From assembly GCF_003334385.1 (NCBI RefSeq), contig NZ_QOWN01000102.1: a DNA stretch of 2,144 nucleotides. One strand, 5' to 3'. The first letter of the stretch is position 1. Every line of letters starts with the position of its first letter. Below, in pieces: positions 416-1,153 of the stretch. The notes under the pieces were generated by a model. That model was not told where the DNA came from. It saw nothing but the letters and a program-made list of their open reading frames with translations, and made no database searches. Made by a program: the position numbers and the translations under genes. This DNA comes from Escherichia coli. Lineage in GTDB: Bacteria > Pseudomonadota > Gammaproteobacteria > Enterobacterales > Enterobacteriaceae.

Positions 416-1153
416 TCTGGTGAGACACTGGTTCTTGGTTCTGCCACAACAGTAACAGGAACAAAATTTGGGGGGGCGTTACTTTCGGGTGGGGCGGCGA
501 CTTTTGATGCAGTCACGACGGCTATGGCGTCTGCTGCCCCTGCTCTTGGAGCAATGGCTGTGGTCGCTGGGCCAATGGGATATGACCTTCTCGCTAATGA
601 TGGGCGTGCCGGGAAGGCTCTGAGCGATGGGCAGTTAATAAATTCTCAGGCTGAAATGTGTTACTGGACCAGTAGTTGTCCTTTAGATAGCCCACATGAG
701 AATGATAATTCGTCAGGGAGTCAGCCGAATGTTGGGAAGGATTTGACGGATGAAGAGAAGAACTGCCTGGCCGGCGGCAGTACGGGAAGCCCGGGAGGAT
801 GGGGACCAGAAGATGAGAATAGCGCAAGGGATCGTATGCAGCATGAACGGTATAAAGATGAATTGCGACAGAAAATGGGAAAACCCGACGTTACAGATTC
901 AAATTTGAAAAATATTATAGACGATCTTTATCGGCCAAATGCAAAAGTAGGAAGTGGAAGCACAGCAGATGCTGTTCGTTATGAATTGGCCACAGGTGAA
1001 AAAGTTGGTGGTAGAGGACATGTATTGAAAGCACAGGATTATACAAGGGCTTTACAGGATTGGTTGGATAAGAATCCAACAGCATCTCCAGGGGATCGAG
1101 CAGCAGCAGAAAACGTTCTTCAGGATTTACAGAATGCTTTGGGAGGCAAGTAA
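2..1153 (+). CDS. rhs: Rhs family polymorphic toxin, C-terminal portion (5'-truncated by window edge): end of conserved core plus variable CT toxin region
   Basis: Open frame from the window edge to TAA at 1151-1153, with no in-frame stop upstream, so the GTG at 5 is not the real start. The translation carries the conserved Rhs core C-terminus (..[54 protein letters not shown]), which I recognise from E. coli-type Rhs proteins. Hand-counted GC on the first 60 nt is about 65%, dropping to the low 40s after about nt 660. Confidence 0.92.
416..1150 (+). other. Rhs variable C-terminal (CT) toxin region, family unassigned; N-terminal Gly/Ala-rich hydrophobic part and polar, charged C-terminal part
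   Basis: It lies immediately after DPLGL, where Rhs proteins carry their polymorphic toxin domains. Composition changes within it: codons 142-197 are Gly/Ala/Thr/Val-rich, while codons ~275-382 are rich in D/E/K/R. An immunity-like small ORF follows directly. Confidence 0.75.
1141..1146 (+). promoter_or_regulatory. Shine-Dalgarno (GGGAGG) for the immunity ORF, embedded in the 3' end of rhs
   Basis: GGGAGG at 1141-1146 with 6-nt spacing to ATG 1153. Confidence 0.55.

Follow-up and report, generated by a model that had tools for sequence, protein, structure and literature searches.

In Rhs proteins the DPxGL motif is a site of autoproteolysis, and many of the C-terminal domains of Rhs and CdiA proteins are DNases. 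The closest described toxin to the one considered here is the CdiA-CT of uropathogenic E. coli 536 (EC536), a CysK-activated tRNA anticodon nuclease that belongs to the Pfam family Ntox28 (PF15605) and whose import is FtsH-dependent. Its active site is made up of D155, K170, W176 and H178, which lie on helix alpha2 and on the alpha2-alpha3 loop (PMC11724271), and the signature residues of the Ntox28 family have been given as D, K[DE], [DN]HxxE and E (Zhang et al. 2012, PMC3482391).

In this report, we analyze a stretch of 2,144 nucleotides of E. coli DNA, called the window below (contig NZ_QOWN01000102.1 of assembly GCF_003334385.1), which contains the 3' end of an rhs gene. An initial annotation had singled out, within the last part of the encoded protein, a glycine-rich block with clustered charged residues as a candidate active site of a toxin domain. 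Our analysis defines the domain as a large cross-phylum family that is used by T6SS, CDI and probably T7SS-type systems and that is absent from Pfam and NCBIfam, and conservation across this family, together with a structural model, indicates that the block is most likely the active site of the module.

The locus and its genomic setting

The features of the window are collected in Table 1. The rhs product carries the annotation 'RHS repeat-associated core domain-containing protein', and the 245 residues that follow DPLGL had no match in Pfam, NCBIfam or PADLOC. The part of these residues that precedes the toxin module contains a Gly/Ala-rich hydrophobic stretch, a pair of cysteines (C219 and C225, nt 656-679) and a linker that starts with a 12-residue segment and runs on to GGWGPEDE; it is possibly a translocation or entry region. 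The GC content is 0.60-0.62 in the Rhs core, 0.52-0.55 in the first half of the Rhs C-terminal region, about 0.40 in the last ~340 nt of the Rhs ORF and the downstream gene, and about 0.30 in the spacer beyond. This stepwise drop across the window is the mosaic expected for a polymorphic toxin locus.

Table 1. Coordinates of the features of the window (position 1 is its first nucleotide)
Feature	Nucleotides	Strand	Residues of the Rhs ORF	Basis or remarks
Rhs ORF	5..1153	+		ORF list; 5' end beyond the window
3' end of Rhs core	5..415	+		Pfam PF03527 (RHS) match at aa 34-68 (E 5e-14); DPIGL...DPLGL motifs
DPIGL / DPLGL motifs	335-349 / 401-415	+		end of core, start of variable C-terminal region
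N-terminal half of Rhs C-terminal region	416..808	+		between core and toxin module
Toxin module	809..1150	+	269-382	predicted five-helix domain, ~92-114 aa
Conserved core	929..1030	+	Y309-K342	YR-x5-GSGST-A-x-A-x-R-x-E ... H-x-x-K; candidate active site
Block flagged earlier	947..1033	+	315-343	translation confirmed
D364	1094-1096	+	364	N-terminus of helix 5, outside the block; frequency.97 (175 homologues)
D374	1124-1126	+	374	helix 5, outside the block; frequency.96 (175 homologues)
Presumed immunity protein	1153..1530	+		ORF list; DUF7674 (PF24722); 125 aa, pI 4.8

[quoted passage not shown] In strains 300709 and HKUOPY1, the 3' end of the rhs gene found in the window adjoins the Hcp/VgrG genes of a type VI secretion cluster, and the gene order runs from this 3' end through a 125-aa 'hypothetical protein' and a spacer of ~470 bp to the start of an ISEc1 (H-repeat) transposase. 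These are the two genomes that we inspected; both annotate rhs as truncated and have lost parts of the T6SS cluster, which is degraded. For this reason, the window's own copy of the toxin may not be deployed.

A C-terminal module shared by many phyla

The last 114 aa of the Rhs ORF were compared with 1.84 billion representative proteins, and matched 1,705 clusters at E<=1e-3 and 897 at E<=1e-10, the ~1,700 family clusters being defined at 50% identity. Among the matches listed, a few of which are fragments, the module is placed at the C-terminus or within about a dozen residues of it. Among the long members there is one CdiA, and the others are Rhs/YD-repeat proteins. When 129 members were surveyed with Pfam, domains of the types PT-VENN, hemagglutinin repeats, RHS/YD-shell, PAAR, PT-HINT, ALF and WXG100-like were seen upstream, along with weak PT-TG matches, and on the module itself Pfam had no match in any of the 129. 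Searches of Pfam, NCBIfam and PADLOC with the module of the window were likewise without a match, and no sequence relative was found in the PDB, whether with the single protein or with the family profile.

Neighbors in AFDB add actinobacterial CpnT-like, planctomycete and Bdellovibrio carriers, and a scan of species-representative genomes gave 21 more loci. The latter come from Serratia, Gilliamella, Xanthomonas, Ralstonia, Campylobacter, Electrothrix, Chlamydiales and Clostridia/Bacillota, and from Anaerolineae, a cyanobacterium, Treponema, Myxococcota and Alphaproteobacteria, and overall the family is spread over more than 10 phyla or classes. As expected of a polymorphic-toxin domain, the module follows DPLGL here and is C-terminal in Rhs/YD, CdiA (VENN), PAAR, PT-HINT, PT-TG and WXG100-like proteins. 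Judged by these sequence comparisons, it is a C-terminal domain of polymorphic toxins that is widespread and yet absent from the family libraries; our literature search found no paper on it. Family members end in the consensus NALxGK/N, and the copy of the window in ...QNALGGK. The modules are typically basic (median pI 9.2); the copy of the window is mildly acidic (pI 5.7).

A partner gene of the DUF7674 family

The start codon of the gene that follows overlaps the stop codon of the toxin (TAATG). Its DUF7674 match is weak or borderline in the window (E 1.1e-3), and 16 of 19 homologous downstream ORFs match this family at E<=1e-3, the best of them at 1.5e-23. In 22 of the 24 loci analyzed (the window included), the toxin stop adjoins an ORF of 106-161 aa, and jackhmmer started from the ORF of the window recovers 19 abutting ORFs, with E values from 1e-15 to 1e-50. 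Among the 22 other loci analyzed, which belong to distant taxa, 19 have a homologous partner ORF at this position. The two genes are arranged in this way in Aliarcobacter and Paraburkholderia as well, the toxin there forming an orphan cassette behind cdiA. The partner proteins are acidic (median pI 4.7) and share only 11-46% identity, with E68 and E88 as invariant residues; no sequence relative of the protein of the window was found in the PDB, and no paper on DUF7674 in the literature. A toxin module joined to a DUF7674 ORF has the signature of a toxin-immunity pair, in which the DUF7674 protein would be the presumed immunity partner.

Conservation within the module

The flagged block lies within the toxin module of this pair, in agreement with its assignment to a toxin domain. 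Its 29-residue translation is as previously read, in frame with the Rhs ORF, and the residue numbers given for R325, E327, E332, K333, R337, H339 and K342 are correct, codon 1 starting at nt 5. The composition of the block, with 6 glycines and 8 charged or histidine residues, is unremarkable by itself, and it is because of its conservation, not its composition, that the block rises above chance. In 175 trimmed homologues, a weighted frequency of at least 0.85 is reached at 15 of its 29 positions, versus 19 of the 85 remaining positions of the module (Fisher P = 0.0036). By this measure of sequence conservation, no other part of the last ~114 aa of the Rhs ORF is as well conserved.

The conserved core begins slightly 5' of the block, at Y309-R310. 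In the 175 homologues, the weighted frequency is 1.0 for K342,.99 for G316, G318, S319, A323, R325, E327 and H339,.98 for T320,.96 for A321,.95 for Y309,.92 for R310 and.88 for S317. In an alignment of 36 sequences, G316, A323, R325, E327 and K342 are invariant and H339 is present in at least 90%. The loci of the genome scan were found with the search pattern [KT][IV]GSGSTAD, and outside this pattern R325 and Y309 are conserved in 23/23, E327, H339 and K342 in 22/22, and D364 and D374 in 21/21. At the core positions of these 22-23 divergent loci, single exceptions are R310, replaced by K in 1/23, and A323, replaced by G in 1/23.

Alignment of homologues had been set beforehand as the test that could refute the initial annotation, and four of the seven residues that it named came through. 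In each of the sets of 36, 175 and 22-23 sequences, which cover many phyla, R325, E327, H339 and K342 show no or almost no variation. R337, E332 and K333 vary among loci from many phyla; position 337 is occupied by K, R, V, S or N across the genome-scan loci, and positions 332 and 333 are freely variable. Of the two glycine-rich turns, GSGS is conserved and GGRG is not, one subfamily having LLSPxG at this place instead of VGGxx. The earlier list also left out conserved positions that lie outside the block, namely Y309, R310, D364 and D374.

Predicted structure

AlphaFold2, run with the family alignment, predicts a five-helix domain (pLDDT 85, pTM 0.77), with helices at aa 271-290, 299-308, 320-330, 339-356 and 362-379. 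In this model, the 11 residues 309-319 make up a closed loop, with a bridge at Y309 and S319, after which helix 3 begins. This helix bears R325 and E327; it is followed by the variable loop 331-338 and then by helix 4, whose first turn contains H339 and K342. Within the core, confidence is lowest in these two loops (pLDDT about 75), as would be expected if they were mobile and bound the substrate. Foldseek found no match to the model in the PDB at E<=0.001.

A glycine-rich loop that runs into the N-terminus of a helix is a classic phosphate-binding geometry, and the position of the GSGS loop in the model, closed and immediately before helix 3, is consistent with a phosphate binder. The same invariant arrangement also speaks for a reading in which the block binds a free nucleotide or cofactor: the GSGST loop would hold a di- or triphosphate in an anion hole, with H339, K342, R325 and E327 as the catalysts of a hydrolysis or a transfer; NAD(P) or ATP would be consumed, for example, or a protein would receive a nucleotidyl or phosphoryl group in the manner of Fic/Doc. 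All-alpha enzymes that combine a histidine with a glycine-rich anion hole do exist, the Fic/Doc fold being one. We hold this reading to be unlikely, and return to it with the evidence on the nature of the substrate.

The conservation might instead be mainly structural, or mark the surface bound by the immunity protein, toxicity then residing elsewhere or being non-enzymatic, for example by stoichiometric binding of an essential target. Glycines, helix caps and buried salt bridges (e.g. R325-E327-D364/D374) would in that case hold a small helical bundle together. G316 and G318 (turns), S319/T320-x-x-D322 and P-G-D364 (helix N-caps) and A323 (packing) resemble structural signatures and could equally be structural, small helical toxins that act by binding exist, and no catalytic motif from any library matches. 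Immunity-contact surfaces of polymorphic toxins, however, usually diversify, whereas the block is kept invariant across lineages as different as Chlamydiales, Cyanobacteria and Clostridia, next to immunity proteins with 11-46% identity. Moreover, invariant His, Lys, Arg, Glu and Tyr residues placed in and around two flexible loops are typical of catalysis, and the rest of the domain is far more tolerant of change. A purely structural or immunity-binding role is for these reasons improbable, and we retain the block as the candidate active site.

Relation to the EC536 toxin

When the C-terminal region was compared with the PDB by phmmer, the only match was the EC536 CdiA-CT (5J5V, 5J43 and 8ZYC; E about 1e-7). 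By BLASTP, the significant part of this match is restricted to aa 237-290 of the ORF (nt 713-874), with 39% identity over 54 aa (E 3e-6), and this segment consists of the linker PN[IV]GKDLTD.EK... together with helix 1 of the module. An FtsH-dependent entry domain like that of EC536 was considered in view of the long phmmer alignment, but was rejected, since the BLASTP match is significant over the 54 aa alone.

Membership of the module itself in Ntox28 was examined with the EC536 toxin sequence taken from the 536 genome, and is unsupported by Pfam, by BLASTP, by two hhalign comparisons and by gapless profile diagonals with shuffles. PF15605 had no match to the window protein at E<=10, and none in 36 trimmed and 129 full-length homologues at E<=0.1; as a positive control, it matches the EC536 toxin (E 5e-4), and it is also among the precomputed matches of EC536 homologues. 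BLASTP of the EC536 toxin against the module aligned helix 1 only. Alignment of the two family profiles by hhalign gave probabilities of 0.4-0.9% (P = 0.06-0.14), with an Ntox28 profile that is narrow (32 sequences, Neff 2.2). The best local alignment obtained with the broader profile pairs GG-RGH339...NP...ALGG with GGYWDH178...NP...ALKG, over 46 columns at 30% identity, and is not significant (P = 0.06). The register anchored on the two histidines (H339/H178) is also the best gapless diagonal, with a score that 7.8% of the shuffles reach. A permissive hhalign alignment is collinear over 92 columns, and pairs G316 with G158, E327 with D162, GG335-336 with GG173-174, H339 with H178 and K342 with E181. 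One family member in AFDB (A0A0X8D552), 44% identical to the module, is named 'toxin 28 domain-containing protein'. The alignment of H339 with H178 made by eye is at most suggestive. The module resembles Ntox28 in place and topology, and it may be a very distant relative in which H339 is the equivalent of the catalytic H178.

Other precedents were considered and set aside. Among EHEC proteins, RhsF (with RhsFI) is restriction-endonuclease-like. The C-terminal domain of RhsG (with RhsGI; Sakai ECs_0603) is of an unrelated HEVIH type, despite the shared ISEc1 context, and the published toxicity of RhsG is therefore not applicable here. The tRNase YxiD of B. subtilis, which catalyzes by His and Lys, has a BECR fold (Ntox50) and is unrelated. 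The R-S-E motif of ART, the Rx4-6H motif of HEPN and the Fic motifs were excluded on spacing and fold. Among the motif families of Zhang et al. 2012, no all-alpha family has the motif set of the present toxin family.

Proposed function

That the flagged block is the functional core of the module is, in our view, very probable. What this core does is a matter of more graded confidence. The initial annotation had proposed a nucleic acid or nucleotide as the substrate, on analogy with other glycine loops, and this is plausible. We put the chances of a nuclease at even, and those of a ribonuclease in particular a little short of even. The evidence on the substrate leans toward RNA, given the resemblance to the EC536 tRNase, the basic toxins and the acidic immunity proteins. 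A basic toxin with an acidic immunity protein would also be compatible with a DNase or another DNA-acting nuclease, for which D364 and D374 would be possible metal binders. Signatures or folds of DNases (HNH, PD-(D/E)xK, GHH, Ntox15 or others) were, however, not matched by the module, and the sole toxin with a detectable resemblance to it is a tRNase, so that we regard action on DNA as very unlikely.

The analogy with RNases is itself weak, because the link to Ntox28 is not significant, and this favors the binding of a nucleotide or cofactor considered above. We give a low probability to a module that is neither an RNase nor a relative of Ntox28, namely a new minimal all-alpha enzyme in which the invariant GSGST anion hole, R-x-E and H-x-x-K would act on a phosphate-containing small molecule or on a protein target. 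The overall explanation that we prefer, with slightly better than even confidence, is that the block is the active-site core of an all-alpha Rhs toxin, that this toxin is an RNase, and that the DUF7674 protein confers immunity to it.

According to this RNase model, the module would be released from the Rhs shell after delivery and would act as a ribonuclease in the cytoplasm of the target cell. H339 and E327 would serve as general acid and base, and K342 and R325 would stabilize the phosphate to be cleaved, possibly with the help of Y309 and R310, and a pocket for a phosphate or for the backbone would be provided by the GSGST loop that leads into helix 3. The variable positions R337, E332 and K333 and the GGRG turn would have no place in the conserved machinery. 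Neutralization would come about by binding of the acidic DUF7674 protein to the toxin.

Implications

The C-terminal domains of polymorphic toxins have been a productive source of enzymology and of tools, including tRNases, deaminase base editors and NADases. Uncharacterized toxin domains are numerous in Rhs and CdiA proteins, and the present one is unsurprising in kind; with ~2% of complete genomes concerned and degraded T6SS loci in the two that were inspected, the stakes for E. coli biology are modest. The analysis gives DUF7674, an orphan family in Pfam, a role as the presumed immunity partner of the toxin family. It also refines the set of candidate residues: R325, E327, H339 and K342 are predicted to be essential, Y309, R310, D364 and D374 are added, and R337, E332 and K333 become built-in negative controls among the seven residues first named. 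If the remote link to Ntox28 is true, the family would be an example of a tRNase scaffold freed from its need for CysK. Should the module be neither an RNase nor kin to Ntox28, it would represent a new biochemical activity for interbacterial toxins, with DUF7674 as a dedicated inhibitor.

Comparison with known systems

Cyclizing RNases of the RNase T1/barnase type use Glu and His as acid and base, and Arg, Lys or Tyr on the phosphate. We infer a likeness of the module to the metal-independent cyclizing RNases (RNase T1/barnase, colicin D/E5, YxiD) from residue types alone. The folds differ: those enzymes have alpha+beta BECR or microbial RNase folds, whereas a five-helix bundle is predicted here.

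The likeness to EC536 lies in the architecture and in the homologous linker and first helix. Both toxins are all-alpha C-terminal modules of ~100 aa in polymorphic toxins, that of EC536 in a solved structure and the present one in an AlphaFold2 model, and the key residues occupy the same topological place, on the second or third helix, in the loop that follows and at the start of the next helix. The residues themselves differ, the toxin family having YR, GSGST, RxE, GHxxK, D and D in place of the Ntox28 signature. Thus, its invariant K342 (in GHxxK) stands against [DN]HxxE and its RxE against K[DE]; it has no evident equivalent of W176 or of the Mg-binding D155, and it possesses an extra GSGST loop. 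The C-terminus is ...NALGGK here, unlike the CysK-inserting GYGI tail of EC536, and the immunity protein belongs to DUF7674, unlike the CdiI of EC536.

Compared with the Rhs/T6SS cassettes of, for example, Salmonella and EHEC, the toxin domain differs in not being among the characterized ones. The layout of the locus is otherwise that of such cassettes, with a core that ends in DPxGL, a variable C-terminal region in which the GC is lower, an overlapping immunity gene and then an ISAs1/H-repeat element; the same toxin module is also found in orphan cassettes behind cdiA.

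Base composition and possible junctions within the window

The GC content of the window (nt 1-2144) falls stepwise along its length, from 0.60-0.62 in the Rhs core to 0.52-0.55 over nt ~400-800, then to about 0.40 over the toxin module and immunity gene (nt ~800-1530), and finally to 0.28-0.35 in the spacer. These steps point to two or more distinct junctions, formed by acquisition or recombination: the first would coincide with the DPLGL motif, and the second would fall within the C-terminal region, at around nt 800-870. The features concerned are listed in the table. The order found here (C-terminal domain, immunity gene, spacer, ISEc1) is the same in EHEC Sakai (locus L030), where the Rhs protein (ECs_0603) carries a wholly different C-terminal domain; the end of the spacer is similar in sequence to that of the window.

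Features of the rhs C-terminal region and its downstream flank
Feature	Window (nt)	ORF (aa)	Remarks
Gly/Ala-rich hydrophobic stretch, ~70 aa, [49 protein letters not shown]...	within 416-712	138-236	directly after DPLGL
Cys pair, MCYWTSSC	656-679		3' of the Gly/Ala-rich stretch
Linker [31 protein letters not shown] plus toxin-module helix 1	713-874	237-290	likeness to CdiA-CT EC536
M291 codon	875-877	291	conserved Met, weighted frequency 0.93
AT-rich spacer, ~470 bp	1531-1998		between immunity gene and ISEc1 transposase gene start
39-aa ORF	1638-1757		sole ORF of the spacer
ISEc1 (H-repeat) transposase gene start	1999-2144		ISAs1 family

State of the locus and a possible internal start

In both E. 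coli genomes inspected (300709, locus L001, and HKUOPY1, locus L029), the annotation treats the rhs gene with this C-terminal region as a pseudogene lacking its N-terminal part, and the adjoining T6SS cluster is broken, with an IS1 insertion and partial tssM, tssJ, tagH and vgrG genes. This copy may therefore be a relic, retained perhaps because of the immunity gene or because the two genes behave like a toxin-antitoxin pair.

Very many database entries of the toxin family are ORFs of 91-92 aa that start exactly at M291, Paraburkholderia orphan cassettes among them, and a 92-aa E. coli 'Rhs' protein with this start is present on at least 1000 contigs. Such ORFs could have arisen as artefacts of gene calling where only an orphan fragment is present, or M291 could be a true internal start yielding a cytoplasmic toxin. 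Internal promoters have reportedly been found in rhs loci of Salmonella and EHEC, which provides an analogy for the internal start. In the window, no obvious Shine-Dalgarno sequence precedes the M291 ATG, and a promoter-like match (890-918) lies just downstream of this ATG and is therefore unable to drive a start there.

Variation in the toxin and immunity families

One subfamily (loci L020, L024, L025 and L026; proteins P0074, P0077, P0079 and P0082) has L-L-S-P-x-G in place of the V-G-G-x-x loop preceding the invariant His, and is also altered in the helix-4/5 region (QKG...GL...L..G.L). Its hosts are Bacillota, Treponema, Myxococcota and Halochromatium, and its substrate specificity may differ. 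On the immunity side, an alignment of 19 DUF7674 partners (A5; 11-46% identity) leaves only two invariant residues, E68 and E88 in the numbering of the window protein, which are candidate contacts for the basic residues that do not vary in the core of the toxin.

Relationship to CDI toxins

PF15605 (Ntox28) matched none of the 166 toxin-family members scanned. The AFDB entry A0A0X8D552 (rank 41; 354 aa) bears the name 'Bacterial toxin 28 domain-containing protein'; it shares 44% identity with the toxin module over 87 columns and may bridge the two families.

No library match was obtained for ORF aa 138-236. As helices and a Cys pair are typical of the cytoplasm-entry domains of CDI toxins (PMC9424206), this segment may, by analogy, be a membrane-translocation region of a T6SS-delivered Rhs protein. 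The segment that follows shares 39% identity (E 3e-6) with its counterpart in CdiA-CT EC536, the CysK-activated tRNase of E. coli 536, and fragments from Lelliottia and other enterobacteria carry the same linker upstream of the same toxin. The segment looks like a junction or recombination segment common to CDI and Rhs proteins, joining the delivery or entry part to differing toxin modules.
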